Of a stretch of DNA of 64,000 nucleotides, positions 11,300 to 49,175 are shown one piece after another (within the stretch, counting starts at the first letter, position 1; each line of letters begins with the position of its first letter). Position numbers and translations under genes: made by a program. Below the pieces are notes generated by a model that was not told where the DNA came from, made no database searches, and saw nothing but the letters and a program-made list of their open reading frames with translations. The DNA is from an uncultured Bacteroidales bacterium (GTDB lineage: Bacteria; Bacteroidota; Bacteroidia; Bacteroidales; UBA932), in the NCBI GenBank assembly GCA_900318565.1, contig ONLD01000002.1:1861-65860 (forward strand). Reading direction: 5' to 3'.

Positions 11300-11476
11300 A
11301 TGATAAAAAAGACTATTCTCTGCATAAGCGCCATCGCCCTGGCCTGCTCCTGCACAATCGAGCCTGCAGCCATTTCAGGGCCAGGTTTCAGCGCCGCCAT
11401 AGAACAAGAAGGCAAGACATACGTCGACGCACAGTTCCACTTATGCTGGCACGCCGGCGACAGATTCAAGAATTGA
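11300..11476 (+). pseudogene. Truncated N-terminal fragment (58 aa) of a fimbrillin-like lipoprotein paralog
   Basis: MIKKTILCISAIALACSC lipobox followed by ...DAQFHLCWHAGDRFKN*. This matches the (K/G)VxWxxGDxI motif of the neighbouring lipoproteins but stops immediately. Its last 11 nt overlap the 3' end of the convergent sigma gene. Confidence 0.45.
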
Positions 11477-12005
11477 AGAAATCCGCGAGCGCTACACGCA
11501 AGTGCCTGAGCGCCTGCGAAATGCGATATTCGATAGTCTTGACGGACACTCCGCCGTCCTTGGCAATATCTTTATATTTGAGGCCGTCCGACCTGCTTTT
11601 CATAAAGGCCGCCCTCTGCTCCTCGGGAAGAGCGTCAAGGGCGTCTGAGAGCATCGTTCCCAGCTCCCGCACGCTAGAATAAGAACTGTCGGACACGGCA
11701 TCCAGCACTGACTGCCTGACGCTGGAATGATAACGCTCCCTGAGGTTCTTTCGGTCCAGGACGCTCAAGCACCTGTTGCGCACCGCAGAATAAAGATAGG
11801 CACCCACTTCGCCTCTGATATGCATCGAGGAGGCATTTTTCCACAAGTTGAAAAAGACATCCTGGACGACATCACGGGCGTCTTCCGCTTCAAGGTAATG
11901 TCCGGCATACGACTCAAGCACGGGATACCATTTCCGGAAAAGCTTTTCAAACGCTTCCCGGTCGCCGTTCGCGATAAGATATATGTTCCGCTTGTCGTCG
12001 TTCAT
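11466..12005 (-). CDS. ECF (sigma-70 family) RNA polymerase sigma factor
   Basis: 179 aa. Region 2 (FEKLFRKWYPVLESYAGHYL...DARDVVQDVFFNLW) and region 4 HTH (LPEEQRAAFMKSRSDGLKYKDIAKDGGVSVKTIEYRISQALRHLR) are both present. The gene is divergent from a FecR gene. Confidence 0.93.
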   Translation of the reverse strand: MNDDKRNIYLIANGDREAFEKLFRKWYPVLESYAGHYLEAEDARDVVQDVFFNLWKNASSMHIRGEVGAYLYSAVRNRCLSVLDRKNLRERYHSSVRQSVLDAVSDSSYSSVRELGTMLSDALDALPEEQRAAFMKSRSDGLKYKDIAKDGGVSVKTIEYRISQALRHLRVALADFFNS

Positions 12006-12078: not shown

Positions 12079-13098
12079 ATGAAAACCGATAAAGACATTG
12101 AGGACCTGCTGCCGGGATACGCTGCAGGTACCATTTCTGAAGAAGACGGAAAACTCGTGGATATGTGGATTTGCCGCAGCGAGGCAAACCGCGCAAAGGC
12201 GGAAGCTGTCTTCCGTGCCGAATATTTGCGCTCACAGGCCGACAGCATCGACAGCGCCGACACCGACAGTGCGCTGAAGTCCGTAAAGAAAAGAATCCGC
12301 AGGCACCAAGGACGCAGCACCGCCCGCGTGCTTGTGTACTGCGCCGCCGCTTTGAGCATACCCCTGATGGTCGCTACGGGCTGGCTGTCTTCGAAATTGA
12401 AGCAGGATGCCCGCTTAGCCCCTGTTGAAATCAGCTGTACCACCGGTATGGTGTCGCGCGCCACTCTTCCCGACGGAAGCCGCGTGTGGCTGAATTCCAA
12501 TTCGAAGCTCAGCTATCCGGCCGTTTTCGGACACGAACGCAGAGTCACCCTCGAAGGAGAAGGGTACTTTGAGGTGGCTAAAGACCACGGACGCAAATTC
12601 ATAGTTGAGACAAGCAGCCAGCAGGTTGAAGTCACAGGTACCGAATTCGACATTGAGGCATATCCGGACAGCGGCCCTGAAATCAGGACCACCCTGATCT
12701 CCGGAAGCATCCGTCTCCACTGCCCCGACGCCTCCGGCAGGGAGCACGTCTTCGAAGTCAGCCCGGGAGAGCAATACATCTACAACCGCGAATCCTGCAA
12801 GATACGGCGGGGAAGCGCCGAAGGCAATGAAGTCACCGCCTGGACCGAAGGCAAGACAATACTGAACAACACCAGCCTCGAGGACGCCCTGCGGGCCATC
12901 GGCAACCGCTTCAACGTGGAATTCCTGGTGCGCAACGAAAAACTGCTCTCAAACCGCTACACCGGTACTTTCAGCGGGCAGCGGCTCGAAGTCGTGCTTG
13001 AGCACTTCCGCCGCACCACAAACATTCATTTCGACACTTCCGTGAAAGGAATGGACACCTACAATATCTCTGGACGACAAATAATCATCGTATATTAG
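12079..13098 (+). CDS. FecR-family anti-sigma factor / transmembrane sensor
   Basis: 339 aa with a central TM segment (VLVYCAAALSIPLMVATGWL). The periplasmic FecR-type block is LPDGSRVWLNSNSKLSYP...VTLEGEGYFEV. The gene sits between the ECF sigma gene and an STN-bearing SusC gene. Confidence 0.9.
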   Translation: MKTDKDIEDLLPGYAAGTISEEDGKLVDMWICRSEANRAKAEAVFRAEYLRSQADSIDSADTDSALKSVKKRIRRHQGRSTARVLVYCAAALSIPLMVATGWLSSKLKQDARLAPVEISCTTGMVSRATLPDGSRVWLNSNSKLSYPAVFGHERRVTLEGEGYFEVAKDHGRKFIVETSSQQVEVTGTEFDIEAYPDSGPEIRTTLISGSIRLHCPDASGREHVFEVSPGEQYIYNRESCKIRRGSAEGNEVTAWTEGKTILNNTSLEDALRAIGNRFNVEFLVRNEKLLSNRYTGTFSGQRLEVVLEHFRRTTNIHFDTSVKGMDTYNISGRQIIIVY

Positions 13099-13106
13099 TA
13101 ACACTT

Positions 13107-16100
13107 ATGGGAAGAACAATTCATCTCTTGACCCGGATCACGTTGCTGTTGTGCACAATGTGTATATCTTTGCAACTGCTTGCCCAAACACGCACGGTCT
13201 CGGTCAAAGCCGACGGCCAGAAGGTCGCGGATGTGCTCAAAATCATTGAGCAGCAGAGCGGATTCACTTTCTTCTACAACGATGCGGCCTTCGACAAAAA
13301 CCGCCGCATCAGCATCGACGCGCAGAATAAAGACGTGCTCGCCGTGCTGGAAGAAGTTTTCCGCGGAACCGACGTAAGAGCCTCCATCATCGAAGGCAAT
13401 ATCGTGCTGAGCAACAAGCCTCAGGCAGGTCAGGACCAGCAGGGCCAGACCAATCCGCTTGTACAGGGCACCGTACTCGATTCCGAAGGACAGCCCTTAC
13501 CGGGCGCGTCCGTATTCGTTAAGGGCACGAAGACTGGCACTGTGACAAATAATGCAGGTGCTTTCTCCATTCCCGCAAAGGAAGGTGACGTGCTCACCGT
13601 ATCCTTCCTCGGCTTTAGGGACCTGGAAATCAACGTGGGCAAGAAAGCTCTATACACTGTTGCACTAGAGACCGACGCCGAATTCCTGGACGACGTCGTG
13701 GTGGTCGGCTACGGCACCCAGAAAAAGGTCAACCTGACTGGAGCCGTGGGCGCCATCTCCTCCGAAGTGCTTGACAACAAGCCAATTACGCAGACATCTA
13801 CTGCGCTTCAGGGTAGCATTCCCGGAGTCACCGTCACCACCAACGGCGGCGGTCCGGGCGCCGATACGGGCAACATCCGCATCCGCGGTATCGGCACCTT
13901 CGGCGGCAGCAGTGCGGCCCCGCTGGTGCTCATCGACGGCATCGAGGGCAGCATCAACTCGGTGGATGCCACGCAGATAGACAAGATCTCCGTGCTCAAG
14001 GACGCAGCCTCCTCGGCAATCTACGGCTCCCGTGCAGCCAACGGCGTCATCCTCATCACCACCAAACGTGCCGACAAGGGCAAGTCCAGCGTAAGCTACC
14101 GCGGTTACGTGGGCTGGCAGACCCCTACCACCACGCCCGACACCGTAGGCCCCATCGACTATATGATACTCAACCGCGAGGCCACTGAGAATGACGGCGG
14201 GACCTCCATCTACACAGATGAGTACATAAGCAACTACCTCAAGAACAACTGGCTGGATCCCGACAACTACCCCATCGTCAACTGGAAGCAGCACGCCCTG
14301 AACGGCAGCGGCCTGATGCATCAGCACAACCTGAGCCTTAGCGCCACTTCCGGCAAGATACGCACCCTCACCAGCCTCGGCTTCCTCGACCAGAGGGGCA
14401 TAGTCAAAAGCGCCGATTTCAAGCGCTACAACTTCCGCAACAATATGAACCTGGAAATCAACGACAAAGTCGGTATGCGCTTCGACCTTTCCGGAAGTTA
14501 CGGCCTGCGGCACTATCATCCCAACCAGAGCGGCTTCTTCAATATGATGAATGCCCGCGACCCTCTGTTCCTGGCAGAATGGTCAAACGGCACCTACGCC
14601 CCGTTCACCGGCGGTACAGTCAACCCCCTGCCTATGATGGACCTGGGCGTGGGCGGACAGGTAACCGGCGAGACCTTCCGACTGGCCGGAGCACTGGCCC
14701 TGAGCTACAAGCCTTGGAAATGGCTCACCCTTGAAGGTACCCTAGCCCCCCGAATCACTCAAAGCGAAACACATACATTCCACGACCTGGTTACCTATTA
14801 TTCAGATGCTTACGGAACTGTATCCCCCATCAAAAACAGGGAATACAACTCCCTGCGCGAGAGCATCAGCCGCACCATCTACGGCAACTACCTGTTCACC
14901 GCCAAGGCCCACCACAAGTTTGCACAGGCTCACGATGTGACGCTGCTTGCAGGTGCCTCCTACGAAGATATGGACAACCGCACTCTGGGAGCCTACAGGC
15001 GTGATTTCCAGTATCCTCAGTACCACACCATCAATGCAGGTGCCGACAACGAACTCAAGGAAAACAGCGGAGCCGAATACCAGTGGGCGCTGGCCTCCTT
15101 CTTCGGCAGGTTGAACTACAACTACAAGGAGCGCTACCTCTTCGAAGCCAATATCCGCTTCGACGGATCCTCCCGTTTCGCCAAAGGGCACAGGTGGGGC
15201 ATCTTCCCATCAGCATCCGCTGCCTGGCGAATCACAGAGGAGCCCTGGATGCAAGGAGTCAAGAAGAGCATCAACGAGCTTAAGATACGCGCATCCTACG
15301 GCCAGCTGGGAAACCAGAACCTCGGCGATGACTATTATCCGACAATCCAGAGGCTTACGATTTCCAGCATCTCGGCCAACGACATAATCTATCCCATCGT
15401 GGGCCTGAACAACCTGGCCAACGAGGAGATTACCTGGGAGACCTCCGAGATGTACGACGTGGGTATCGACGGAACCTTCTTCGACAAGCTTACCCTTACC
15501 GCCGACTGGTACTACAAGACCACCTACGGAATCTTGATGGAGCTTGACATCCCCGCCAGCATTGGCCTCAACGCGCCGTTCCAGAATGCCGGCACCGTCC
15601 GCAACGTAGGCTGGGAAGTAGGCGTGGGCTACCACGACCGCAAGGGCGACTGGAGTTGGGGCGTGGATGCCAACCTGAGCGACGTTGTCAACCAGATCAT
15701 AGATATGAAGGGCACCGCATCCGGCTCGCTGCTGCGCAACGAGGAGGGTTATGCCATCAACTCCATCTACGGCCTCAAGTGCATAGGTATGGCCCGCAGC
15801 CAGGAAGAGGCCGACCAGGTCAACGCCACTTGTCCGCAGTACGGTATGGAGACCAAGCCCGGCGACCTTATCTATGAAGACGTGGCCGGTGACTTCAAGG
15901 TTGACGAAAACGGTGAATACATCCTCGACGCCAAGGGCAACAAGATTCCCGCCCCTGACGGCAAGATCGACGACCAGGACCGTCAGATAATTGGCAGCAC
16001 CATCCCCCGCTACACTTTCGGGACCACTCTCAGCATAGGCTGGAAGGGCTTCAACCTAAGCGCCCAGTTCCAGGGCGTGGGCAAGTTGAACGCCTACCTC

Positions 16101-16505
16101 AACGGCTACTACACCCAGCCCTGCGTACAAGGAGGCACCTTCCGTACCGAGCATCTGGACCGCTGGACTCCCGACACTCCCGACGGGCACTTCCCCCGCT
16201 TGAGCTACGCCAGCGAGCTGAGCAAGAAGAATTCCAGCTTCTGGATGGCGGATGCCGCGTACTGCCGCCTCAAGAACCTGCAACTCAGCTACACCTTCCC
16301 CAAGAAGTTGATGAAGAAAGCCAGGATAAGTAACCTGACGCTCTTCGCCAACGCCACCAACCTCTTCACCCTCACCAACTACTGGCAGGGTTACGACCCG
16401 GAGAATATGTTCACGACCAGCGGCGACGGCGTACAGGCCGGAGCTACCGCCACGAACTACCCCCTGGTATCTACCTACACATTCGGAGTGGACATTAAAT
16501 TCTAA
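13107..16505 (+). CDS. SusC/RagA-family TonB-dependent transporter with N-terminal STN signalling domain
   Basis: 1132 aa. STN-like block: VSVKADGQKVADVLKIIEQQSGFTFFYND. Carboxypeptidase-regulatory-like block: GTVLDSEGQPLPGASVFVKGTKTGT. TonB-box/plug: DVVVVGYGTQKKVNLTGAV...IRIRG. The C-terminal barrel ends in F. Confidence 0.95.
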   Translation: MGRTIHLLTRITLLLCTMCISLQLLAQTRTVSVKADGQKVADVLKIIEQQSGFTFFYNDAAFDKNRRISIDAQNKDVLAVLEEVFRGTDVRASIIEGNIVLSNKPQAGQDQQGQTNPLVQGTVLDSEGQPLPGASVFVKGTKTGTVTNNAGAFSIPAKEGDVLTVSFLGFRDLEINVGKKALYTVALETDAEFLDDVVVVGYGTQKKVNLTGAVGAISSEVLDNKPITQTSTALQGSIPGVTVTTNGGGPGADTGNIRIRGIGTFGGSSAAPLVLIDGIEGSINSVDATQIDKISVLKDAASSAIYGSRAANGVILITTKRADKGKSSVSYRGYVGWQTPTTTPDTVGPIDYMILNREATENDGGTSIYTDEYISNYLKNNWLDPDNYPIVNWKQHALNGSGLMHQHNLSLSATSGKIRTLTSLGFLDQRGIVKSADFKRYNFRNNMNLEINDKVGMRFDLSGSYGLRHYHPNQSGFFNMMNARDPLFLAEWSNGTYAPFTGGTVNPLPMMDLGVGGQVTGETFRLAGALALSYKPWKWLTLEGTLAPRITQSETHTFHDLVTYYSDAYGTVSPIKNREYNSLRESISRTIYGNYLFTAKAHHKFAQAHDVTLLAGASYEDMDNRTLGAYRRDFQYPQYHTINAGADNELKENSGAEYQWALASFFGRLNYNYKERYLFEANIRFDGSSRFAKGHRWGIFPSASAAWRITEEPWMQGVKKSINELKIRASYGQLGNQNLGDDYYPTIQRLTISSISANDIIYPIVGLNNLANEEITWETSEMYDVGIDGTFFDKLTLTADWYYKTTYGILMELDIPASIGLNAPFQNAGTVRNVGWEVGVGYHDRKGDWSWGVDANLSDVVNQIIDMKGTASGSLLRNEEGYAINSIYGLKCIGMARSQEEADQVNATCPQYGMETKPGDLIYEDVAGDFKVDENGEYILDAKGNKIPAPDGKIDDQDRQIIGSTIPRYTFGTTLSIGWKGFNLSAQFQGVGKLNAYLNGYYTQPCVQGGTFRTEHLDRWTPDTPDGHFPRLSYASELSKKNSSFWMADAAYCRLKNLQLSYTFPKKLMKKARISNLTLFANATNLFTLTNYWQGYDPENMFTTSGDGVQAGATATNYPLVSTYTFGVDIKF

Positions 16506-16510
16506 GCGTT

Positions 16511-18313
16511 ATGAAAAAGTACATAATATTGATTCTTGCATCGGTACTTACGCTTGCATCCTGCGAAAAAGCCCTGGAGCGCTATCCGCTCAACGGTCCA
16601 TCCACCGGAACCTTCCCCGCCAGCGAGGAGGAAGCCCTGGCCGGTGTACTGGTAAGCTATAAGAACCTCGCAAACTCGGTGAGCCAATACAGCCCCTACC
16701 CCTGGCGCTTCGTGGACAACCTCACCGACATAGGAACCACCCGCATCGGCCTGAGCAGTTGGAACCTCCTCGTAACTTCCACGGCTACACAGACAACCAG
16801 CGCCGCCACCATACTTTACACCAGGATTTACAAGACCGCAGGCCGTATCCATCTGGTGCTTGACAATCTGGACAATATAAAGGACAAGATGTCGGAGGAG
16901 ACTTACAAGCAGTTTAAGGCCGAGTTGCTGTGCCTGAGGGCCTATGTCTATGATATGGGGTGCCAGTATTACGGCGACATTCCTTTCATCGACCACTGTC
17001 TCACCCTCACCGACTACGAGTACCCGCGTGTTCCCAGGGAGCAGGTCATCGACCGCATCCTCAAAGATATGGACGACGATCTTCTGAATTATCTTCCGGT
17101 CCGCTGGGACAAGAGCGTATGGGGTAGCGCCCGCCTGGGCAGGGCTGCCGCCTATACTCTCAAAGCACGAATCTGCCTCAACTGGGGACGTTTCGAGGAA
17201 GCGGCTAAATACTCCCGCATAGCAATGGAACTCGCTGAGGGAGTGTATAAGCTGGAGACCCTGGACTGCACCTATTATCCCAATGCAGCCACCGCAGGCG
17301 AACCTTCCGCCTCCAATCTGTTCGGCTTCGAAGGCGAGAAGAGCGACGAGTGGATGTGGGCCATACAGTTCAACAAACTGGCCGCAGCCAACACTCACGC
17401 AATGGTTTACACCTATTCTTCCCGAGTCCATAACGGCGCTGCCGGATGCGGCCCTTCCCAGGCCCTGATGGACACCTTCCAGTGTACCGACGGCAAGTCC
17501 ATCACGGAATCCCAGCTTTACAACTGGCAGGACCCGTGGAGCCACCGCGACCCTCGCCTTGACCTGTACTGCCTGCGGCCCGACACCCGCTACAACGGAG
17601 TGGAATACACCACCAACCCGAGTGCAAAGCAGGTCCGCGACTACAACACCGGTGCTATGGTAAACAACAACGATGTCTATGGCAACAAGAGCGAGTACGG
17701 TCCCAACGGCACCAAGGGACCAGGCGGCTACCTGTGGCGCAAATTCGGCGATCCGGCATACTACGGAGCCACCCTCACCAACACATACGAGGACGACCTT
17801 GACGTGTGCATAATGCGTTACGCCGAGTTGCTGCTCATCGACGCCGAGGCCAATATCGAGTGGAACGGCGGCGACCTCAAACGCGCCCAGAACGACATCA
17901 ATCAGGTGCGCCAGAGGGTAAAAATGCCGAAGATTACTACTGTGGACCGCGCCGAGCTCCGCAGCGCCCTGCGTTACGAGCGCACCGTTGAGCTGTGCGC
18001 CGAGGGCTTCCGCTGGTTCGACATACGCCGCTGGAAAATGTCCGACGGCCGCGCACTTGCGGAAAAGGTTATGAACGGTCCCCAATACGCTCCCGGCTTC
18101 AAGGACATCCTTTCCAACGCAAAGCCTACAATAGACGAGAACTGGACGGTCAGCTACAACACTTCCGACACCTGGGACGGCAAGGCTTTCAACCTCCGCA
18201 CCCTCATCAATCTGTACTATCAGCCCGGCAAAGACGAGCTCTGGCCGCTTCCCGACAGGGAAATCCGCACCAACGCAGCCATCGGCCAGGAGAACCAGAA
18301 TCCCGGTTATTAA
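16511..18313 (+). CDS. SusD/RagB-family nutrient-binding outer-membrane lipoprotein
   Basis: 600 aa with lipobox LTLASCE, starting 5 nt after susC. SusD-type blocks are present: RAYVYDMG, MRYAELLLIDAEA, ERTVELCAEGFRWFDIRRW. Confidence 0.93.
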   Translation: MKKYIILILASVLTLASCEKALERYPLNGPSTGTFPASEEEALAGVLVSYKNLANSVSQYSPYPWRFVDNLTDIGTTRIGLSSWNLLVTSTATQTTSAATILYTRIYKTAGRIHLVLDNLDNIKDKMSEETYKQFKAELLCLRAYVYDMGCQYYGDIPFIDHCLTLTDYEYPRVPREQVIDRILKDMDDDLLNYLPVRWDKSVWGSARLGRAAAYTLKARICLNWGRFEEAAKYSRIAMELAEGVYKLETLDCTYYPNAATAGEPSASNLFGFEGEKSDEWMWAIQFNKLAAANTHAMVYTYSSRVHNGAAGCGPSQALMDTFQCTDGKSITESQLYNWQDPWSHRDPRLDLYCLRPDTRYNGVEYTTNPSAKQVRDYNTGAMVNNNDVYGNKSEYGPNGTKGPGGYLWRKFGDPAYYGATLTNTYEDDLDVCIMRYAELLLIDAEANIEWNGGDLKRAQNDINQVRQRVKMPKITTVDRAELRSALRYERTVELCAEGFRWFDIRRWKMSDGRALAEKVMNGPQYAPGFKDILSNAKPTIDENWTVSYNTSDTWDGKAFNLRTLINLYYQPGKDELWPLPDREIRTNAAIGQENQNPGY

Positions 18314-18325
18314 TATCACTGAAGT

Positions 18326-20263
18326 ATGAAAAGAAGTATCATATTTATCGCTGCAGCAGCCTTGCTAATCGTCGGCTGCAAAGACTACAGCTACGAAACT
18401 TGGACTCCTGATCAGACCTTGTCCCGCACAGGCGAGGTGAGCCTCCTGGCCAACTTCGAGAACCTGCAGACCAAGGTATTTATGGACGAGAAGGGGCACG
18501 GAACCTGGGAGGGGGCCGACGAGATTGCGGTCGCCTGCACCGACGGCAGCCTCGTCACCTTCAAGCTGGACGGCACGGGCGACACCAAGCGCGCCGTGTT
18601 CAAGGGCACCATCCCTTCCGGCAAGCAATTGGGCCAGGTGGCCGTTTATCCCGCCTCCGCCGCTCTCAGCATTTCCGGTTCAGACCTCACCCTCAAGCTC
18701 AATGACGCCATTACCGCAGCCGTATCTTCGACATATCCCGGCGTACTCGTGGGAGCGATTGAAGATACCTGGGAGGTGAATTTCAAGCAGGCCGTAGGCT
18801 TCCTCAACCTGGCCATAGGGAACTTCCCCGCAGAGGCGGCCAAGATTATTCTTTCCAGCCCCGAGGGGGCCCTGAGCGGCACATTCAAGGCGCCCGTCGA
18901 GAGAATTCTGGACAGCGGCCTAAAACCCTCTGATGCCGTGAGCGGCGGCAACATTACCCTTAATGTAAAATCCTCTGGAAAAACGGTTTACGCCCTGGTT
19001 CCCGTGCCGGTGGCCGACTACGCCGCCATCAATGCCTCCCTACTGGACAACAAGGACAAGACCATAATGGAACAGCCCCTGAGCGACTATACCACCGGCA
19101 TATCCAGAGCCGAGATGCACTCAATAAGCACCGAGTGCGCCGATGTCGCCGCTCCTCCTTGCCGCATCAACATCCGTGGTGAGCGCACCGAAATGCAAGA
19201 GTCTTCCCCCGGCGTGTTCGAGGGTGAGTTCGAAGTCCCCGCCACGACCTCGTTCTATGTCGAGCTGGACGGCGAGGCTTACGGATTTGCCACATTCTCG
19301 GGAGCCGGCGGCCTTGGGACCATCACTTCCGACGCTTCCGCGCTTCCCGTGGCCAAAATCAAGGCGGCGGGAAAGAGCAAGCGAAGCTACTATGTTAAAA
19401 GAGCCATCGGCACTATGGTGAGCTCTTCCGTAGCGGACAATCCCTTCTCAATCAACCTGGAGAGTCCCGGCAAGATTCACGTATTTATCGACAACAGCAA
19501 CCCTTCGTCCCCCAAATACAGGATCAACCTTATACAGGAGGCCGACCCGGCTGTCATTTTCCACGAAGATTTCGACCTTTGCACACTCGGAGGCGACTAC
19601 ATTGCTCCTGTCGATGGAAACGGGCAGAAAGCGGATGCCTATGACGGATATCTTCCCTCAACCAGCACGGTAACCCAGAATAACGGTGCATTTACATTCG
19701 ACTACCCTGTTGACGTGTCTACGGCTCCCGAAGCCAAGCCTGAATATATGCAGGCCTATGGTTTCCAGGACTGGGTGTTCGAGTATGCGGCCGAGCGACC
19801 GGGCGGACTGCAGCTCTGCGCAGGAGCCATCGCCGGAGCTATGACCACCCCGGCGTTCAGCAGCATAGAGGGCAGCGCCGACGCGGTCATCGAAATTGAA
19901 ATCGCACGATTCTCGACTTCTTCCACCGACCCTGTGTTCTTCATACTCGAAAATGGCGGAAGCTTCAATTCAGGCACCATAACCCGCGATGCATACGTCG
20001 CAGCCAGCCAGGCCGGAACATCCTTCCCCGAAGCTACTACCGCGCTGAGCAGCTTTGAGGATGGCGGCACCACCCTGAGGCTCGAGGACAACGATTATTT
20101 CCCCCATCCCTGGAACAATGCCGACATTGACAAGCCCATATCGCACATCAGGCTTGAAGCAAGCGGATTAACCCCCGCTACCAAGCTCAAGATCGACTGC
20201 CCCAAGGGCGTAAAGAACGCCCCCCGTATATTTGTGTTCGACATCAAGGTTACCAAGAAATGA
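18326..20263 (+). CDS. Surface lipoprotein of unknown function (fimbrillin-like N-terminal module, unassigned C-terminus)
   Basis: 645 aa with lipobox AALLIVGCKD. The N-terminal module carries GTWEGADEIAVAC...VAVYPA, shared with the other locus lipoproteins. It lies directly downstream of susD. Confidence 0.8.
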   Translation: MKRSIIFIAAAALLIVGCKDYSYETWTPDQTLSRTGEVSLLANFENLQTKVFMDEKGHGTWEGADEIAVACTDGSLVTFKLDGTGDTKRAVFKGTIPSGKQLGQVAVYPASAALSISGSDLTLKLNDAITAAVSSTYPGVLVGAIEDTWEVNFKQAVGFLNLAIGNFPAEAAKIILSSPEGALSGTFKAPVERILDSGLKPSDAVSGGNITLNVKSSGKTVYALVPVPVADYAAINASLLDNKDKTIMEQPLSDYTTGISRAEMHSISTECADVAAPPCRINIRGERTEMQESSPGVFEGEFEVPATTSFYVELDGEAYGFATFSGAGGLGTITSDASALPVAKIKAAGKSKRSYYVKRAIGTMVSSSVADNPFSINLESPGKIHVFIDNSNPSSPKYRINLIQEADPAVIFHEDFDLCTLGGDYIAPVDGNGQKADAYDGYLPSTSTVTQNNGAFTFDYPVDVSTAPEAKPEYMQAYGFQDWVFEYAAERPGGLQLCAGAIAGAMTTPAFSSIEGSADAVIEIEIARFSTSSTDPVFFILENGGSFNSGTITRDAYVAASQAGTSFPEATTALSSFEDGGTTLRLEDNDYFPHPWNNADIDKPISHIRLEASGLTPATKLKIDCPKGVKNAPRIFVFDIKVTKK

Positions 20264-21438
20264 TGCACCTGCTGATTTCATTATTGGCATCCGCAATTGT
20301 CGCAGGCTCCCCCCTGCCGCCTTGGCAGGAGGGCTGCCTTGATATACACGCCATCAATTCCGGCCGCGGAGAATGCACATTCTTTATTCTGCCCGACGGC
20401 ACCACCCTCTTGGTGGACGCAGGAGAATGGATCAACTGGAAGTCCAAAAGATACCCCGGAGTGCCGCCCAAGCCTTCAGCCGATGTGCGTCCCTGCGAGG
20501 TGTACGCCCGTTACATACGTCATTTTATGCCCCGGAAGGCCAAGGGAGCATTGGACTATGCGCTCATAACCCACTATCATATGGACCATTTCGGCACAGA
20601 GGAGGAAGGTATGGAGGTCGACCCGCAGGGGGGATATGTCCTTACCGGCATAGCCGCACTTCAGAAAGAAATCCCCATCCGCACGCTGATCGACCGGTCT
20701 TATCCGAAGTACGAGAGCACGTGGCTTCCCTCCAGCTCGCAAAGCACCTTCTATCCTAAGTTCGTGCGCTGGGCATCAGCCCACGACGGAATGAAGGCCG
20801 AGAGTTTCAGAGTGGGTGACCGCAGACAACTGCGCCTGCGCCACCGGCCTTGCCGCTACCGCAATTTCAGCATTATGAACTACGCTGCAAACGGAATTGT
20901 TTGGGACGGTTCCAAAAAGGTAAATGCGTACGAGGGCAAGGACATCAAGGAGAACGGCGCATCCTGCTGTTTCCTCCTGAGTTACGGAGACTTTGACTAC
21001 TACACAGGAGGCGACGCCGGAGGCAATGGCGCCGTGGCGTATCCGGTGGCCAGGGCGATAGGCCGGCCAATCGAAGCTATGAAGGCTGACCATCACTTCT
21101 CCTACCATTGTATGAAAGACGAGACTATGGGCATATACAGGCCTCAGGTGGTTGTGACCCAGGTCTTCTCGGTCAGGGAAATACAACCGGACGTAGAGAC
21201 TCTCACCCACCTGTTGCTGGACAACCCGATGGGTCTTGACACAAAGTACTACTTTACCAACCTCGGAGAAGAACAGCGAAGCCTGCACAAAGACCTTTAC
21301 GACAAGGCCTCAGGCATAAACGGACACGTTGTGATAAGAGTTATGCCCGGAGGTTCTGAGTATTATGTATATTTATTGGATGACACTAATTTCGAGTACA
21401 ATATAATTCAAACTGACGGACCTTTCAAATGCAGATGA
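20260..21438 (+). CDS. Secreted ComEC-like MBL-fold hydrolase (stand-alone paralog 1)
   Basis: 392 aa with an ATGA start/stop overlap with the upstream gene. Motifs: LPPWQEGCLDIHAINSGRGECTFFILPDGTTLLVDAGE, ITHYHMDHFG, YGDFDYYTGGD, EAMKADHH, GHVVIRVMPGGSEYYVYLLDD. Confidence 0.85.
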   Translation: MMHLLISLLASAIVAGSPLPPWQEGCLDIHAINSGRGECTFFILPDGTTLLVDAGEWINWKSKRYPGVPPKPSADVRPCEVYARYIRHFMPRKAKGALDYALITHYHMDHFGTEEEGMEVDPQGGYVLTGIAALQKEIPIRTLIDRSYPKYESTWLPSSSQSTFYPKFVRWASAHDGMKAESFRVGDRRQLRLRHRPCRYRNFSIMNYAANGIVWDGSKKVNAYEGKDIKENGASCCFLLSYGDFDYYTGGDAGGNGAVAYPVARAIGRPIEAMKADHHFSYHCMKDETMGIYRPQVVVTQVFSVREIQPDVETLTHLLLDNPMGLDTKYYFTNLGEEQRSLHKDLYDKASGINGHVVIRVMPGGSEYYVYLLDDTNFEYNIIQTDGPFKCR

Positions 21439-22703
21439 GAAAGAATTTTACATTTTTTATTACTTTTCTGATGCTCGCCGCCTGCGGACAGAAGCCCGAT
21501 GAGGACCAGGGCGGGGAGCAGCCGTCAAAGGCACCGAACGAGGCCGCGATCGGCGACGTCCTGCCCTTATGGCAAGAAGGATGGCTTGATATTCACGCAA
21601 TAAGCACGGGACGCGGCGAGTGCACCTTCTTTATGATGCCCGACGGCACCTCTATGATCATTGATGCCGGAGAAGTAGTGACATCCACAACTTCACCTGT
21701 ATCCGTGACCCAGAGGCCCAACAGCAACACAAGGGCGTACTTTACGCAATCACGCTATATTAAGCACTTCCTGGAGGCTTCCGGACACGATTATCTGGAC
21801 TATGCCGTAATGAGCCACTTCCACATCGACCACTTCGGCACACCCAAAGGCAAGGGATTCATAGTTAGTTCGGAGGGCTATACCCAAACCGGCTTGATGG
21901 CCCTGTACACGACACTGCCCTACAAAAAATTGATAGACCGCGCCTGGAGCGCCGACGATCCTGAATATGAGTTCGTCAAGACAAGCGCAACCAGCTACAG
22001 TGCCGGTCTGCACGGGGATTACACCAACTTTGTCAAGTATGCCACTTCAAAGAAAGGGCTTGTTATGGAGCGCTTCCAGGCCGGCACCGACAAGCAGCTC
22101 ACGCTCTGCTACAATGCGGCCAAATACCCTTCTTTCAAGATTTTCAACTACGGCGTCAACGGTGAATACTGGAACGGCACTTCGATGGTGGATGCTTACG
22201 GTTCCGCCATCCCGTACGAGAACGGTGCCTGCTGCATTTCGCTCATAAGCTACGGCAAGTTCGACTACTACACTGCCGGAGATGCGGGCGGAAACACCAA
22301 GATGGCAGTCCCTGTGGCCAAGGTTATCGGACGCCCGATTGAGGCTATGAAGGCCGACCATCATATGTCGGTAAACTGTCTGCCCAAGGACCAGATGAGC
22401 ATACTCAAGCCCAAGGTGATAGTGACCCAGAGTTTTGCACGCCGCACCGACCAGCCTATGCTTGAAACCATAAAGGACCTGCTGGACGGCGCCTACTACG
22501 ACACCGGGGTGTCGCTTTACTTTACTGGAGTTGACGACGTCATAACCACGCCCAACAAAGACCTTTACGGTCACTGCCACGTCAACGGCCACGTGGTTAT
22601 CCGCGTAGCCCCGGGCGGGGACCGCTTCTGGGTTTTCCAGCTTGATGACACCAACAATATCTATAGAATAAAATCGGTCGAAGGACCTTTTGAATGCGAA
22701 TGA
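21429..22703 (+). CDS. ComEC-like MBL-fold lipoprotein (stand-alone paralog 2)
   Basis: 424 aa with lipobox FLMLAACG, overlapping the upstream gene by 10 nt. Motifs: LPLWQEGWLDIHAISTGRGECTFFMMPDGTSMIIDAGE, MSHFHIDHFG, YGKFDYYTAGD, EAMKADHH, GHVVIRVAPGGDRFWVFQLDD. Confidence 0.85.
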   Translation: MQMRKNFTFFITFLMLAACGQKPDEDQGGEQPSKAPNEAAIGDVLPLWQEGWLDIHAISTGRGECTFFMMPDGTSMIIDAGEVVTSTTSPVSVTQRPNSNTRAYFTQSRYIKHFLEASGHDYLDYAVMSHFHIDHFGTPKGKGFIVSSEGYTQTGLMALYTTLPYKKLIDRAWSADDPEYEFVKTSATSYSAGLHGDYTNFVKYATSKKGLVMERFQAGTDKQLTLCYNAAKYPSFKIFNYGVNGEYWNGTSMVDAYGSAIPYENGACCISLISYGKFDYYTAGDAGGNTKMAVPVAKVIGRPIEAMKADHHMSVNCLPKDQMSILKPKVIVTQSFARRTDQPMLETIKDLLDGAYYDTGVSLYFTGVDDVITTPNKDLYGHCHVNGHVVIRVAPGGDRFWVFQLDDTNNIYRIKSVEGPFECE

Positions 22704-22984: not shown

Positions 22985-25450
22985 ATGACAATGAAAAAGT
23001 TAGTTAAAACCATACTGGTCGCAGCGGCCGTTCTTGCCGCTTTCGCTTGCAGTAAGGAAGTCCGCACTGAGACTCCTGCCGCCACCCCCGGGGCCATCCG
23101 TTTTACCGCCACTTTGGACCAGCCTGTCAAGGCAACCCTCGACGCTTACAAGGTATGCTGGGAAGAAGGCGACGTCATCGCAGTTTACAACGGCTCAGTT
23201 TGGGCCAACTCTACAGCAATCTCAGATGCCGACATCGAAGATGGTGGCCGCACCGCATCCTTTACCGTTTCTATCGGTGAGGCAGACTCGTACACTCTGG
23301 TCTATCCGGCATCTGCCATCTCTTCCGCCGCCCTGCCCGACGGCGCCCCCGCTGGCTCCATAATGCTCACCCTGCCCTCCGCACAGGTGATTCCCGCGGG
23401 CGGAACCATCGACCCCGCCTCACTCGTGCAGGTAGGCACAAGTACCGAGCCCACCAAGGTTACATTCAAGAATGCAGTATCGCTGGTGGAGTTCAAGGTT
23501 CCCGAAAACGGCATCTCTTCCGTATATCTTGAGGGCTTCACTCCAGAAGGTGGTGCCATCAGGATGTCAGGTGACGCACCTGTCGCCGTCGAACCCGGCG
23601 TCGCTGCCGGAACCGATCCTATCCTAAGCGTGAGCGGATCATTCACCGCCGGCCAGAACTATTTTGCCGCGGTATGGCCCCAAGCCGCAGTAGGGACTCT
23701 CCGTTTCTGCTTCTCCAAGGGCTCGCAGAAGGCCGTCCGCTCCGGGACATCGGCAGCAGGCTTCGACCTGCCCGTCAGCGGCGGGCGCAAGTTCGAAGAC
23801 TTCGGAACGCTTTCCTGGCTAGACAAGATACGCACCAAGGCTGACCTTGACCTTTGGGCCTCCATAGCCAACTTCTACGCCGCAGGCGAGGTGGCGGAAC
23901 TCGCAGCCGACATCAACTACGGCGGCGAGACCTGGAAGCCCGTCAACGGAAACGCCAATTCCGGTCATTTTGCCGGTATCTTCGACGGAGCCGGACACAA
24001 CATCTACAATATCGTGATTTCCGACGACGATCAGTTCCCCGGCTTCTTCTCCACACTTGCATCCAACGACAAGATGCTCCGCGTCAGGAACCTTACTCTG
24101 GGCCGTGACGGCGACCAGAGTTCCCTTGTAGTTTCGTCCTCGAGCAACGAGAATGCCGGCGCCCTTGCCGGCCGCATCAAGAATACCATCATCCAGAATG
24201 TTACGAACAACATTCCCGTCACCTACACAGGAGTCATTTCCAGCGGCACTCCAGTATTCGGAGGTCTGGTAGGCCGCTCTATGAACAATTCAGAGATCAG
24301 CTCCTGTACCAACAACGGCAATGTCGTAAGTACAAGCACTGGCGCGGGAATGTACTTCGGCGGAATCGTTGGCACGATCTACGACAATACAATAATCAGC
24401 AACTGTACCAACACCGGCCGCGTGGCCCGTGACATAGCTTCTACCAACAAGGGAGTTGTCGTATATGGAGGCATACTTGGACGTACCGGCAACGAAACCG
24501 ACGGATGCGTCATCACCGGATGTTCCAACACCGGCATAATTGAAAACACTGTCAATATCAAGGCCGGCCAGATATACTTCGGAGGTATTGTGGGTATGGA
24601 CGGAAGCGTTGCCACGGAATCCACCAAAATAAATCTCCAGGTTCTCAACTGTACCAACGAGGGCGCCATCAAAGGATTCAACCAAAGCCAGGCGTCTTAT
24701 GTTGCTGCCGGTGGCATAATGGGCCGTATGTCCAATGCCAACCTTGTTCAGGAGTGCGTCAACCTCGGCCCCGTAACAAAGTTAGGCAACCACTCAATTG
24801 AGGGCTGCTACGGCGGAATAATAGGTATGACTTCCGACGAGAACGGCCTTGTCAAAGACTGCATCAACGGCAAGAGCGGCGACCCAACCAAGGGCGCAGT
24901 ATCAGACATCCTGCAAACCGCTGGCAAGAATGAGCGTCTGGGCGGTATTTCGGGTTTCGCCCAGAGGGGCAATTACGAAGGATGCACCAACTATGCCATC
25001 GTTTCCTCTGCTGACGGCGCCAAACAGACCTATGTGGGCGGACTTACCGGCAACAGCACCGTAGGCAAGTTCAAGAACTGCTCAAACTTCGGCGATGTGG
25101 TTGTAGAAGCCCAGGCTGTTGATGGTATGATCCGCAGCGCCGGCGGCCTCATCGGCCTCCAGAATGGCAGCGCCAACGACAACCTCACCGGAGAGGGATG
25201 CGTCGTACAGTGCCGCGTCAGCTGCGGCGACGCCGTCAACGCCGGAATAGTTGTGGGACGCTTCTCCAACTCGGTCACCGCCGTGTGGGGCACATCTGCT
25301 TCGCCTATCAAGGTCAAATCCGGCTGCTCCGTCAACGACACCAATGTAACCGCATCCAACTACGGCTCTCTTCTCGCCGGTTCCGCCTACGGCATCACCG
25401 CCTCCGGCGTCGCCAGCGGCAACAACACTATTTGGGCAATATTTGAATAA
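22985..25450 (+). CDS. Surface lipoprotein: fimbrillin-like N-terminal module plus about 10 GLUG-type repeats
   Basis: 821 aa with lipobox LAAFACSK. The N-terminal module carries KVCWEEGDVIAVYN...LVYPA. The C-terminal half has periodic GG(L/I)xG motifs: FGGLVGRS, FGGIVGTI, YGGILGRT, FGGIVGMD, AGGIMGRM, YGGIIGMT, LGGISGFA, VGGLTGNS, AGGLIGLQ. Confidence 0.8.
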   Translation: MTMKKLVKTILVAAAVLAAFACSKEVRTETPAATPGAIRFTATLDQPVKATLDAYKVCWEEGDVIAVYNGSVWANSTAISDADIEDGGRTASFTVSIGEADSYTLVYPASAISSAALPDGAPAGSIMLTLPSAQVIPAGGTIDPASLVQVGTSTEPTKVTFKNAVSLVEFKVPENGISSVYLEGFTPEGGAIRMSGDAPVAVEPGVAAGTDPILSVSGSFTAGQNYFAAVWPQAAVGTLRFCFSKGSQKAVRSGTSAAGFDLPVSGGRKFEDFGTLSWLDKIRTKADLDLWASIANFYAAGEVAELAADINYGGETWKPVNGNANSGHFAGIFDGAGHNIYNIVISDDDQFPGFFSTLASNDKMLRVRNLTLGRDGDQSSLVVSSSSNENAGALAGRIKNTIIQNVTNNIPVTYTGVISSGTPVFGGLVGRSMNNSEISSCTNNGNVVSTSTGAGMYFGGIVGTIYDNTIISNCTNTGRVARDIASTNKGVVVYGGILGRTGNETDGCVITGCSNTGIIENTVNIKAGQIYFGGIVGMDGSVATESTKINLQVLNCTNEGAIKGFNQSQASYVAAGGIMGRMSNANLVQECVNLGPVTKLGNHSIEGCYGGIIGMTSDENGLVKDCINGKSGDPTKGAVSDILQTAGKNERLGGISGFAQRGNYEGCTNYAIVSSADGAKQTYVGGLTGNSTVGKFKNCSNFGDVVVEAQAVDGMIRSAGGLIGLQNGSANDNLTGEGCVVQCRVSCGDAVNAGIVVGRFSNSVTAVWGTSASPIKVKSGCSVNDTNVTASNYGSLLAGSAYGITASGVASGNNTIWAIFE

Positions 25451-25604
25451 ATTAATACGCAATATTATGATAATCAACAACTTATATACCCCCCCCAGAT
25501 CACAATCCGCCTAATTGAAAGTACTGGCATACTATGCGAAAGCAACATCCAGTCCAGAAGAGTCATCTCTGGTAATTGGGATGAAGAATAACACAATTCC
25601 TGCT

Positions 25605-27413
25605 ATGAAAAAGTATTTTGCTATCATTTGCCTGGCGATGGCAGCCATTGCCTGCAGCAAGGAGTCTGTTACCGAGACCCATCCCGAAGCCGAGGGCGTG
25701 CGCACCGTTACTCTGACTGCAACTCTTCCGTCAACTAAAGTCAACGTTGACCTTGAAAACAATGGCAAGGTCACTTGGAGCAGTGATGACAAGATTGCCG
25801 TCTACAATACCTACGGAGACAAATTTGAATTCACCGTGAAAGAAGGCGCGGGTACTGACAATGCTACTTTTGAGTGTTCTAGCTTCACGGGAACAATTGC
25901 TGACATTGCGGTGTTCCCTTATGACTGGGCCGGAGACACTATGGGCGAAATCACCATCCCTGAGTATAGGGAGAGAACTGATGACATTCCTGCCGTGATG
26001 GCCTCAAAAATTGAGGGCGGAGACGGCTCTGAAGTAAGTCCCCTGTATTTTAACAGCCTTATGGCCATTATTGAATTCACAATCAAGGATGTTCCTGCCT
26101 ACGCTTGCGCCTTCAAATTATGGTCCCAGAGTGGAGCACAATTAAACGGAACATACACAATAAACGCTTCAAGAGATGCCTTGGAATCAGTGCCTGTAAG
26201 GAATTCCGGTCAAATTATTTATTTCCCGTATAAGACTGCATATGGCTCTGATGCAACAGTTAAAGTATATGCTGCCATTCCGGCTTATGAATACAAAGAC
26301 CTTCGCATAAGAGTATTGGACGGTGATGAAGATGTAATAGAAGGCACAAGCAAACTTATTCCTGAAAGCAACTTCAAAGGACAAAGTGCTGATGCCTACA
26401 TTACTATGCCGGAGCTGAACATACGTTCTATGGTAGGCAGCGCCCGCGACAACTTCGTGAAGGTTGAGGGCATCAAGTGGGCAAAGGGAAATTTGAGGGC
26501 CTGGAAGGATGGCGGAGATGATGGCACTGGTGACGGCTGGGTAACGGGCTGGAATATTTACGGACACCAATGGGATACTCAATATGCCTTGATAAATGAG
26601 AGCGTTGATGGTTCTTCTGTTTCATATACTATCAATAATAGCAATTATAAGGAAGGCAATATTTATACCCATTGGGATCATTTTAGTTGGGGAACGTTAG
26701 GAAGAGCTTCAAGGGTTCACAACTGCCCGATTATATGTGACGCTAAAGAATTTGATCTTTGGGGTAAAGTTTTTGACTTAGAAGGAAGTACATCCGGTAC
26801 AGTTTCTTCTGCGACAACCGTATTAACCGGAGATAGTCAGTGGATTGAGAATGAAACTTTCGGAACTGTAAATCCTACCTATGCCGGAGATGTTGCATAT
26901 TGGGCCAGCAAAGGCCAGTACCGTATGCCAAAAAGTAGCGAGATTATCAAATTGTATAGCAAAAAGGGAGAAGTCAGTGAAAGAGCAAATATGCTAGTCG
27001 GTTATTATAAAGATGGCGAAAAAATTATTAATGGCCACCTGTTTACGTCTACACCTATCCATTGGAATTCCACGCCCAGTTACAATACAGAAGCTTGCGA
27101 ATTCACGTTAGCGGATATTGAGTCTGGTCTATTCCTTCCATCAAATGGGATACGCGGAAATATCGGAACTTCTCCAGGGACCTTCTCAGCAACAGGCGTT
27201 AATGGGTACAATGCATGGGGTGGTTATTGGTGTGGCAATTTCGGAGGAGATATAGAAACTGATATATACAAGAATAACGCAAGATGCATTTGTTGGAAAA
27301 CCGACAACGAACTAATGTATGGTTACACAGTTTCTATCAGTAATTCTAGCGGGATTCTGTACACTGGCAATACAAAAGTCGGCAACTGTATCCGCCCGGT
27401 ATATATCCCGTAA
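25605..27413 (+). CDS. Surface lipoprotein: fimbrillin-like N-terminal module plus divergent FISUMP/DUF1566-like C-terminal domain
   Basis: Likely start MKKYFAIICLAMAAIACSK at 25605; the tracked ORF begins at an upstream TTG at 25515. The N-terminal module carries GKVTWSSDDKIAVYN...AVFPY. The C-terminus carries KWAKGNL, GDVAYWASKGQYRMPKSSEI, GLFLPSNGIRG, GGYWCGN and CIRPVY. It is a paralog of 27705-30599. Confidence 0.85.
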   Translation: MKKYFAIICLAMAAIACSKESVTETHPEAEGVRTVTLTATLPSTKVNVDLENNGKVTWSSDDKIAVYNTYGDKFEFTVKEGAGTDNATFECSSFTGTIADIAVFPYDWAGDTMGEITIPEYRERTDDIPAVMASKIEGGDGSEVSPLYFNSLMAIIEFTIKDVPAYACAFKLWSQSGAQLNGTYTINASRDALESVPVRNSGQIIYFPYKTAYGSDATVKVYAAIPAYEYKDLRIRVLDGDEDVIEGTSKLIPESNFKGQSADAYITMPELNIRSMVGSARDNFVKVEGIKWAKGNLRAWKDGGDDGTGDGWVTGWNIYGHQWDTQYALINESVDGSSVSYTINNSNYKEGNIYTHWDHFSWGTLGRASRVHNCPIICDAKEFDLWGKVFDLEGSTSGTVSSATTVLTGDSQWIENETFGTVNPTYAGDVAYWASKGQYRMPKSSEIIKLYSKKGEVSERANMLVGYYKDGEKIINGHLFTSTPIHWNSTPSYNTEACEFTLADIESGLFLPSNGIRGNIGTSPGTFSATGVNGYNAWGGYWCGNFGGDIETDIYKNNARCICWKTDNELMYGYTVSISNSSGILYTGNTKVGNCIRPVYIP

Positions 27414-30599: not shown

Positions 30600-30601
30600 T
30601 T

Positions 30602-31420
30602 ATGAATGACTTGTTCGACCTTAAGGGAAAGGTAGTGGTGGTGACCGGAGCCTGCGGAGTGCTGGGCTCGGCCATCGTCAGCTACTTCGGGCGCCTGGGC
30701 TGCAAAGTGGCGCTCCTGGGCCTGGAAAGGGCCAGGGAAAGGAGTGAGAAGCTGATTGCCGGGCTCGAAGGAACGCCCGGCGAGGCTCATTTCTTCGCCT
30801 CGGACGTGCTGCGGGAAGATACGCTGCAGCAGAGCCGGGAGGAAATCCTGCAGCGTTTCGGCACCATAGACGTGCTCATCAATGCCGCAGGAGGCAACCT
30901 GTCAAGCGCCAACGTTGGCCCGGAGCAGACGCTCTTCGATATGGACATCGAGGCTATGAAGCAGGTTTGCGAGCTGAACATCTTCGGCACCGTCATCCCC
31001 ACAAAGGTCTTCCTCAAGCCTATGACGGACAAAGGCAGGGGGTCGATTATCAACTTCTGCTCTATGTCCTCGTTCCGGCCCCTTACCAGGGTGGCCGGAT
31101 ACGGAATAGCCAAGGCCGGGATAGCCAGCTGGACGCAGTGGCTCGCGGGCGAGCTTGCCGCCAAGTTCGGCGAGGGACTCAGGGTGAACGCAATCGCCCC
31201 GGGATTCATCCTCACAGGCCAGAACCACTCGCTGCTCGTCAATCCCGACGGATCCCTTACGGACCGCTCGCAGAGCATCATCGCCCATACGCCCATCGGA
31301 AGGTTCCTCAAGCCCGACGAGATACTGGGCGCCATACACTACCTCGCTTCTGACGCATCAGCCGCCGTCACCGGTACAATATCGGTTGTGGACGGAGGCT
31401 TCAACAGCTTCTCTATATGA
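30602..31420 (+). CDS. Short-chain dehydrogenase/reductase, likely UxuB-type D-mannonate oxidoreductase
   Basis: The [24 protein letters not shown] Rossmann motif (TGxxxxxG) and YGIAKAG (YxxxK) are present. The gene lies immediately upstream of and overlapping uxuA. Start is taken at 30602, 2 nt after the upstream stop. Confidence 0.8.
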
Positions 31421-49140: not shown

Positions 49141-49175
49141 GGAAAATCCATAAGAATATATACTCAAAAAATTAC

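Follow-up and report, generated by a model that had tools for sequence, protein, structure and literature searches.

Pce (CbpE) of the pneumococcus cleaves off terminal phosphocholine, which it accommodates in a deep pocket (PMC4929436), and the metallo-beta-lactamase (MBL) domain of the competence protein ComEC is a proven Mn-dependent endo- and 5'-exonuclease, with an HxDxDH motif in the crystallised domain (PMC12455585). Pce has been described as the closest structural relative of that domain (PMC12455585, PMC5031224). In Flavobacterium johnsoniae, the SusC/SusD-like pair PusCD imports organophosphates such as glycerophosphoinositol (GroPI) and inositol monophosphate (IP1) under the control of an extracytoplasmic function (ECF) sigma factor and its anti-sigma factor (bioRxiv 10.64898/2026.09.03.749221). 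Here we describe a locus that encodes four MBL domains around a SusC/SusD-type importer, in a window of 64,000 nucleotides (the whole stretch of DNA that was analysed; contig ONLD01000002.1, positions 1,861 to 65,860) from an uncultured rumen Bacteroidales bacterium. The domains, carried by proteins of 705, 392, 424 and 964 amino acids (aa), are exported and predicted to be binuclear-metal hydrolases of a widespread, uncharacterised family that is a variant of the known MBL superfamily, and in this locus they would be under trans-envelope control. Most likely they cleave the phosphodiester linkages of sugar or polyol material joined through phosphate, and not DNA.

Four exported MBL domains and their relatives

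The four domains (10048-11298, 20260-21438, 21429-22703 and 29480-30599) are collinear, and each lies inside a long open reading frame (ORF) on the forward strand. An earlier note on this DNA had grouped them by a shared signature, and alignment bears out their paralogy. A MAFFT alignment contained 72 invariant columns, with 31-38% identity to the first sequence. Even the most divergent pair, the domains of the 705-aa and 964-aa proteins, matched by BLASTP at E=7e-48, so that the similarity among the four is far beyond chance. A family hidden Markov model (HMM) found exactly four copies in the window, and the 705-aa protein represents a distinct subfamily with extra inserts. Every block of the proposed signature was recovered, although the spacer between GRGE and PDGT has six residues and not five. 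The first block reads PxW(Q/K)xGxLDIHxIxxGRGE...PDGTxxx(V/I)DA and is followed by (S/T)H(Y/F)HxDH(M/F)G, YG(K/D)FD(Y/W)(Y/F)(T/S)(G/A)GD and EAMKA(N/D)HH; the C-terminal block, GHxVxRVxPGG...GP(F/Y), contains the conserved hairpin GHxVxRVxPGG...GPF. The HxHxDH motif was intact in all four copies, as the note had stated. H105, H107, D109, H110, N232, D252 and H279 (392-aa protein numbering) were invariant in 50 family members as well as in the four window copies. The domains are acidic, with isoelectric points of 5.5-6.5 in the window and a family median of 5.96.

Export signals, which had also been proposed, were confirmed in each protein. Lipoprotein signals are present in the 705-aa (…LGSAAC), 424-aa (…MLAAC) and 964-aa (…MAAGC) proteins, whereas in the 392-aa protein the signal peptide is short and plain, a pattern kept in its orthologues. 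The domain is free-standing in the 392-aa and 424-aa proteins and fused behind adhesin- or lectin-like modules in the 705-aa and 964-aa proteins. Across the family, we counted 67 lipoproteins, 55 proteins with plain N-terminal signals and 15 fusions. Every tandem set contains one copy with a plain signal peptide, next to lipoprotein copies that have long acidic linkers. In Bacteroidota, acidic residues after the lipobox cysteine are a surface-export signal. From these linkers together with the plain-signal copy we infer a set of surface lipoprotein enzymes and one soluble periplasmic enzyme. The 705-aa and 964-aa proteins are thus predicted to act at the surface, possibly joined there by the 424-aa lipoprotein, and the 392-aa enzyme is predicted to be periplasmic. 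In the N-termini of the lipoprotein MBL copies in Alistipes/Rikenellaceae (loci L003 and L025-L030), the lipobox is followed by the conserved acidic motif C-G-G-[DE]-D-x-K-M-P-W-E-D-D-L and a Pro/Glu-rich linker, and the adjacent paralogue has a plain signal peptide; this suggests that the copies are split between surface and periplasm in a conserved way.

A word-indexed search returned 1151 relatives, named only 'MBL fold metallo-hydrolase', 'beta-lactamase superfamily II metal-dependent hydrolase' or 'hypothetical protein'. An exhaustive profile search gave 432 clusters (50% identity) at E<=1e-30 and 1675 at E<=1e-10. The genome scan found more than 522 loci, and the family is mostly found in Bacteroidota: rumen Bacteroidales metagenome-assembled genomes (MAGs), of which RUG13810 and RUG12551 are about 90% identical to the window, together with Alistipes, Bacteroides, Muribaculaceae, Prolixibacteraceae, Niabella, Albibacterium and Wenyingzhuangia. 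Outside Bacteroidota, loci were seen in a small number of Planctomycetaceae, Opitutaceae and Acidobacteriota. Cultured carriers include Alistipes timonensis DSM 25383 (locus L013) and Niabella aurantiaca DSM 17617 (L036). For each window paralogue, orthologues in other genomes reach 58-94% identity, whereas the paralogues are only 30-45% identical to one another. Orthologues of the 705-aa protein were found at 55-64% identity in loci L005, L006, L071, L069, L072 and L077, and those of the 964-aa protein at 69-94% in L015, L005, L001, L065 and L006. Since orthologues exceed paralogues in identity, the four-fold expansion is an old set of orthologous groups, as judged from sequence, and not a recent or lineage-specific burst. 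Lineage-specific expansion was also rejected because tandem pairs of a signal peptidase I-type copy and a lipoprotein copy are kept from rumen Bacteroidales to Alistipes.

Placement near Pce and ComEC

An AlphaFold2 (AF2) model of the 392-aa protein, built with 50 homologues, reached a pLDDT of 93.1 and a pTM of 0.93. Foldseek against the PDB gave 94 matches at E<=1e-3, and all 50 among the matches listed were MBL-fold proteins; with the invariant HxHxDH, this assigns the alpha-beta/beta-alpha sandwich of the MBL fold. The best was the ComEC MBL domain of Moorella glycerini (9ic4; E=7e-14, 19% identity), with a template modelling (TM) score of 0.79 when normalised to the target and only 0.56 on the query; about 130 residues are added to a ComEC-sized core. 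Pneumococcal Pce/CbpE (2bib, 1wra) was joint best, at E=8e-14 to 3e-12 and a query-normalised TM score of 0.49-0.51. UlaG-like proteins, CPSF73/IntS11 and RNase J (these last three at ~1e-7) and an MBL arylsulfatase came next, five to seven orders of magnitude weaker. When the family profile was run against PDB sequences, Pce scored 1.3e-10 and ComEC 1.1e-3, seven orders apart, and the Pce match spanned the long insert between the DxGE strand and HxHxDH.

In the profile alignment, H105/H107/D109/H110, N232, D252 and H279 fall on Pce residues 84/86/88/89, 182, 202 and 228 (chain numbering), which we take to be its metal ligands, the numbering agreeing with an offset of +1. By alignment position and invariance, the family would therefore carry the Pce ligand set of HxHxDH, Asn, Asp and His. 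The likeness to Pce further includes the motif-3 Asn, the bridging Asp in GGD, the HH block, export, and the HxHxDH motif itself, which reads THTHSDH in Pce. Pce differs in its C-terminal choline-binding repeats and its Gram-positive host, and identity is 16-17%; the window family adds the ~130 residues, the C-terminal hairpin, the SusCD loci and up to four copies per locus. With the C-terminal domain of ComEC/Rec2 (9ic4; cryo-EM structure 30bt), the family shares the opening strand LD[IV]xxGxG[DE], the N..S motif-3 region and the HH[GS]S block, and both face the extracytoplasmic side. In contrast, the window proteins have neither the Competence channel nor the OB fold and sit in a context of nutrient uptake and not of competence, and they combine HxHxDH with acidic domains, whereas the crystallised ComEC domain has HxDxDH and depends on Mn (PMC12455585).

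No match to Competence (PF03772) or DUF4131 was found by Pfam scan in any of the four proteins, their N-terminal parts being signal peptides or a fimbrillin-type module, and the best score against TIGR00361 (ComEC_Rec2) was 17.5 bits, in one protein only, against a cutoff of 190; ComEC membership was rejected on these grounds. The Pfam scan likewise gave no CW_binding_1 choline-binding repeats in any of the four. Lactamase_B (PF00753) scored 18.2 and 20.0 bits in two proteins and did not match the other two (threshold 22.7), while some homologues carry a precomputed PF00753 match. Weak matches to LptM, NMB1110_3rd, blaAHM and the anti-phage 6A-MBL family were far below their cutoffs and were taken as noise. 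The kinship with ComEC that the earlier note had drawn thus stands at the level of structural neighbourhood, yet ComEC is not uniquely the closest fold, since Pce ties with it, and by sequence and by the form of the HxHxDH motif Pce is closer. The family does not, for its part, settle into the Pce subfamily, given the 16-17% identity and the missing choline-binding repeats. On sequence grounds the four domains are neither ComEC proteins nor members of the Pce family. With Pce placed nearest to the ComEC MBL domain in the literature (PMC12455585, PMC5031224), Pce, ComEC and the present family make up a single branch of the MBL superfamily.

This placement bears on two other accounts of the enzymes. 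Were the four domains ComEC-like nucleases, the exported enzymes would degrade extracellular DNA or RNA, both on the cell surface and within the periplasm, and the SusCD pair would import the oligonucleotides to supply phosphorus, carbon and nitrogen. The top Foldseek match and its proven nuclease activity argue for this, as do the matches to RNase J, CPSF73 and IntS11 and the abundance of nucleic acids in the rumen. One relative, P0184 (an 830-aa metagenomic representative in which the MBL domain is joined to His_Phos_2), has H-L-D-G-D-H in place of HxHxDH, which is the ComEC-type HxDxDH variant. However, the profile preference is for Pce, and the domains are acidic, whereas the ComEC site is described as strongly positive and that of Pce as not (PMC5031224). 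Nor do the domains come with an OB, beta-CASP or KH module; their partners are fimbrillin-, CBM- (carbohydrate-binding module) or lectin-like. The genomic context described below also speaks against nucleases, and we regard them as unlikely.

Head-group esterases of the Pce type would instead strip phosphocholine, phosphoethanolamine or glycerol phosphate from glycans or lipids for the benefit of other enzymes, with no depolymerisation of the backbone. The proximity to Pce in sequence, including the insert before HxHxDH, is consistent with this account, as is the action of Pce on a terminal group. The aromatic residues that are invariant in the family (W22, Y85, F168, W215, Y242 and F245) could form a cage or a sugar platform, and fusions to AXE1 and PF00144 esterases fit the removal of decorations. 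But the core operon contains no glycoside hydrolase that could attack a stripped glycan, choline-binding repeats are lacking, and the presence of four MBL copies in two compartments is more suggestive of depolymerisation. We therefore consider esterases of this kind a rather improbable answer.

Neighbourhoods, fusions and the probable chemistry

For a census of genome neighbourhoods, ORFs were called and clustered at 81 non-redundant loci and the recurrent clusters were annotated. SusC and SusD genes were present within 10 kb in 40 and 41 of the 81 loci, respectively. The commonest non-transport neighbour was a FAD oxidoreductase (PF12831; 25/81), often directly adjacent and frequently accompanied by an SSF symporter (9/81), DUF6772 and DUF6385; we found no literature on this oxidoreductase. 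GDPD genes, from three unrelated clusters and in several phyla, occurred at 16 loci, Metallophos at 12, His_Phos_2 at three and alkaline phosphatase at two, and at least one second phosphoesterase was present at 27. Other neighbours included a GlpT/PgtP/UhpC-type organophosphate antiporter (291 bits) and glycerol-phosphate genes (a glycerol-1-phosphate-dehydrogenase-like protein and an NAD glycerol-3-phosphate dehydrogenase), as well as a HAD-IIA phosphatase. There were also a ribulokinase (511 bits, above cutoff), an IolC-like PfkB, IolM-like genes, a zinc-dependent alcohol dehydrogenase and mannitol-dehydrogenase-family proteins. GH92 was a further neighbour, forming a GDPD-MBL-GH92 triad in Prolixibacteraceae. 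Among the annotated recurrent clusters of the 81 loci there was no nucleotidase, nucleoside phosphorylase or nucleoside transporter; that these clusters instead include GDPD, polyol and glycerol-phosphate genes is the contextual argument against nucleases.

Domain fusions gave a similar picture. The MBL domain is fused to GDPD in P0121 and P0165 and to His_Phos_2 in P0184, with continuous reading frames and intact HRG and RHGSR catalytic motifs. Other fusion partners were AXE1, the PF00144 esterase, a beta-helix, and CBM-like modules with a type IX secretion system (T9SS) tail. In Bacillus subtilis, GlpQ (a GDPD enzyme) and PhoD are extracytoplasmic phosphodiesterases that degrade poly(glycerol phosphate) or glycerophosphodiesters. 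The MBL family resembles this system in that GDPD is its commonest enzymatic partner and is also fused to some members, but the folds are unrelated (a TIM barrel in GDPD and another fold in PhoD), and we know of no MBL-fold teichoicase.

Because the MBL domain of ComEC and Pce both cleave phosphodiester bonds, the best fold matches count in favour of phosphodiesterase activity. Taken together, the fold matches, neighbours, fusions and acidic isoelectric points support a phosphodiesterase whose substrates are polyol- or sugar-phosphate diesters and not nucleic acids; the leaning towards DNA in the earlier note was not upheld by genome context and fusions. A different chemistry altogether would be that of an MBL aryl- or alkylsulfatase acting on sulfated glycans, or of a UlaG-type lactonase or esterase. 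Foldseek matches to 2wyl/2wym (2e-8), which we take to be UlaG, and to a Pseudoalteromonas MBL arylsulfatase (8gyg, 6e-7) are in line with it, as are S1 sulfatases at 4/81 and SASA esterases at 5/81 loci and the hexuronate genes (SDR, UxuA, GH2) downstream of the window locus. Those matches are, however, the ones that trail Pce and ComEC by five to seven orders, phosphoesterases dominate among the neighbours and account for both informative fusions, and the SDR/UxuA/GH2 block is absent in the otherwise syntenic locus L001. This alternative appears very unlikely.

We favour, as the probable role of the locus, a system in which surface and periplasmic phosphodiesterases feed the SusCD importer with fragments of a phosphodiester-linked glycopolymer or of glycolipid head groups. 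A phosphate-linked polymer or glycolipid head group would be bound at the surface by SusD and by fimbrillin-fold, CBM-like and lectin-like lipoproteins. Candidate substrates are wall or lipoteichoic acid and an inositol- or glycerol-phosphate-linked glycan (a glycosyl inositol phosphorylceramide (GIPC), glycosylphosphatidylinositol (GPI) or phosphomannan fragment). Anchored MBL enzymes (705, 964 and possibly 424 aa) would then cut phosphodiester bonds, and the fragments would be imported through SusC. In the periplasm, the soluble 392-aa enzyme would finish cleavage to phosphomonoesters, which would pass to phosphatases and organophosphate or polyol transporters encoded nearby or elsewhere. 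Substrate on the STN domain of SusC would free the ECF sigma factor from FecR and so induce the operon. The neighbours support both classes of substrate: glycerol-phosphate metabolism, ribulokinase and the relationship to Pce favour teichoic acid, whereas His_Phos_2, the IolC- and IolM-like genes, SSF and GH92 favour inositol- or glycerol-phosphate glycolipid head groups. For the latter class, the import of GroPI and IP1 by PusCD provides a precedent.

Several points weigh against this role. The core operon of the window encodes neither a GDPD nor a phosphatase or organophosphate transporter; the closest phosphoesterase genes are those for Metallophos (35988-37103) and His_Phos_2 (46478-47728), which are 5-16 kb away and may be unrelated. 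The census counts are raw, taken without a background model, and several loci come from related MAGs. The neighbours suggest several substrates (glycerol phosphate, ribitol, inositol and mannose), and it is therefore possible that the family is heterogeneous. Sequence identity reaches only 16-19% with Pce and ComEC, the MBL fold also includes sulfatases, lactonases and thioesterases, and no publication on this MBL family was found.

By its architecture the locus is of the SusCD type, with a SusC-like TonB-dependent transporter adjoining a SusD-like lipoprotein (Pfam Plug, STN and SusD_RagB) and enzyme genes in the same orientation. A Pfam scan between 9181 and 30599 detected no glycoside hydrolase, polysaccharide lyase or carbohydrate esterase domain, which sets the locus apart from a classical polysaccharide utilisation locus (PUL), and the MBL domains are the sole catalysts predicted in that interval. 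By analogy, it appears closer to the Pus system than to a classical PUL, with a different enzyme family. Both have a SusC/SusD-like pair and an ECF/anti-sigma pair, and both have no carbohydrate-active enzymes (CAZymes) in the core locus, the Pus loci carrying phosphodiesterases and phosphatases in their place. These are, however, PI-PLC, calcineurin-like and PhoA/GDPD enzymes, and neither Pus paper mentions an MBL enzyme. The host here is a rumen anaerobe, and no feature of the window ties the locus to phosphate starvation. A further possibility, which we advance tentatively, is dedicated utilisation of phosphodiester polymers, in which MBL phosphodiesterases would replace the glycoside hydrolases of a PUL as surface endo- and periplasmic exo-enzymes. 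Teichoic acids of Gram-positive neighbours and plant or fungal inositol-phosphoglycan (GIPC-type) head groups would be the candidates.

Layout of the locus and its meaning

The genes are listed in Table 1. The ORFs of the 645-aa and 392-aa proteins overlap by 4 nt (ATGA), and those of the 392-aa and 424-aa proteins by 10 nt; these stop/start overlaps suggest translational coupling across the three genes. The same architecture was found at loci L001, L005, L006, L007 and L015, and distant Alistipes and Bacteroidales genomes keep a reduced core of SusC-SusD-lipoprotein(s)-MBL-MBL(-MBL). A gene for a 645-aa-type lipoprotein follows SusD in most SusCD-type loci.

Table 1 Genes of the MBL locus and downstream genes, in window coordinates.
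Feature	Coordinates	Strand	Basis
705-aa lipoprotein; N-terminal module (aa ~1-280) and C-terminal MBL-family domain (10048-11298)	9181..11298	+	ORF translation, alignment
ECF sigma factor, divergent from the anti-sigma gene	11466..12005	-	Pfam Sigma70_r2, Sigma70_r4_2, Sigma70_ECF
FecR-type anti-sigma factor	12079..13098	+	Pfam FecR, FecR_C
SusC-like TonB-dependent transporter with N-terminal STN signalling domain	13107..16505	+	Pfam STN, CarboxypepD_reg, Plug
SusD-like surface lipoprotein	16511..18313	+	Pfam SusD_RagB, SusD-like_3
645-aa lipoprotein; fimbrillin-fold N-terminal module, Ig-like middle, CBM-like beta-sandwich C-terminus	18326..20263	+	AF2 model, Foldseek
392-aa free-standing MBL-family protein, plain signal peptide	20260..21438	+	AF2 model, Foldseek
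424-aa MBL-family lipoprotein with acidic linker	21429..22703	+	Translation, alignment; orthologues lipoproteins throughout
821-aa lipoprotein; common N-terminal module, then GLUG repeats	22985..25450	+	Pfam Glug; N-module homology
632-aa lectin-like lipoprotein (602 aa from internal Met)	25515..27413	+	BLASTP paralogy to 964-aa protein
964-aa lipoprotein; common N-terminal module, lectin-like module, C-terminal MBL-family domain (29480-30599)	27705..30599	+	
Calcineurin-like phosphoesterase (Metallophos), possible accessory phosphoesterase of the locus	35988..37103	+	Pfam; same gene downstream of locus in L001, L017, L065
FAD-dependent oxidoreductase (PF12831)	37608..39026	+	Pfam 375 bits

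An N-terminal module of about 250 aa is common to the 705-, 645-, 821-, 632- and 964-aa lipoproteins (BLASTP 1e-6 to 1e-10), spanning 9181-10050, 18326-19100, 22985-23800, 25605-26400 and 27705-28500. In an AF2 model of the 645-aa protein (pLDDT 83), the module has the Bacteroides fimbrillin or 'cell adhesion protein' fold (Foldseek 3ufi, 3sy6 and 4h40) and is followed by CBM-like beta-sandwiches with weak matches to CBM22 and CBM16. No nuclease fold was present in the model. A weak NCBIfam T9SS_DNase match (E=0.006) is unsupported by the modelled fold, and a role as surface DNase was rejected; to judge by the model, the protein is probably a non-catalytic surface binding protein. The common module seems to act as an all-purpose stalk that displays enzymes and binding domains at the surface.

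The 632-aa protein is paralogous to the first ~570 aa of the 964-aa protein (BLASTP E=6e-92, 37% identity), and its gene lies in a GC trough of 0.42-0.48 with surroundings of 0.55-0.63. The slot between the 424-aa and 964-aa genes varies among loci, holding proteins of 593 and 612 aa in L001, two GLUG proteins in L005 and three of ~600 aa in L006, and looks like a swappable surface-lipoprotein cassette. Elsewhere in the window, a 983-aa protein (55164-58118, minus strand) combines Big_2 with an Lcl_C/Fib_succ_major lectin-like C-terminus, which by motif inspection only is similar to the lectin-like domain of the 632- and 964-aa proteins.

The window has a GC content of about 0.55-0.6 and begins with rpoB and rpoC. 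Between the 964-aa gene and the Band_7 and Metallophos genes lies a block (30590-34954) encoding an SDR protein (UxuB-like?), the mannonate dehydratase UxuA and GH2 (32867-34954). We set it aside as a part of the system, given its absence from L001; it may represent a hexuronate module unrelated to the system, or else hint at a substrate with glucuronic acid. The window also has an IS110-family transposase (47986-49002) and, after it, a bacterial serpin (49388-50614), and GC falls to 0.38 at 58-60 kb; the regions 47986-50614 and 58000-60000 are probably mobile or acquired DNA. Long ORFs of up to 605 aa on the minus strand opposite real genes (16502-18319, 9679-10653 and 29427-30401) arise artefactually from GC-rich codon usage.

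Phosphodiester-linked glycoconjugates, teichoic acids and inositol-phosphoceramide glycolipids among them, make up a large biomass pool in the gut and rumen, and beyond the recent PusCD work on phosphatidylinositol no Bacteroidota uptake locus for such glycoconjugates is known to have been characterised. The MBL family is not captured by Pfam or NCBIfam. Its small, free-standing 392-aa and 424-aa proteins are directly testable candidates. If the phosphodiesterase role is true, hundreds of SusCD loci without CAZymes would be re-annotated, and the family would form a third functional branch beside Pce and ComEC. Cleavage of phosphate-linked sugars or polyols would point to an undescribed nutrient route, and dedicated utilisation, if true, would mean a new enzyme family and an unrecognised flux of carbon and phosphorus in rumen and gut Bacteroidota.

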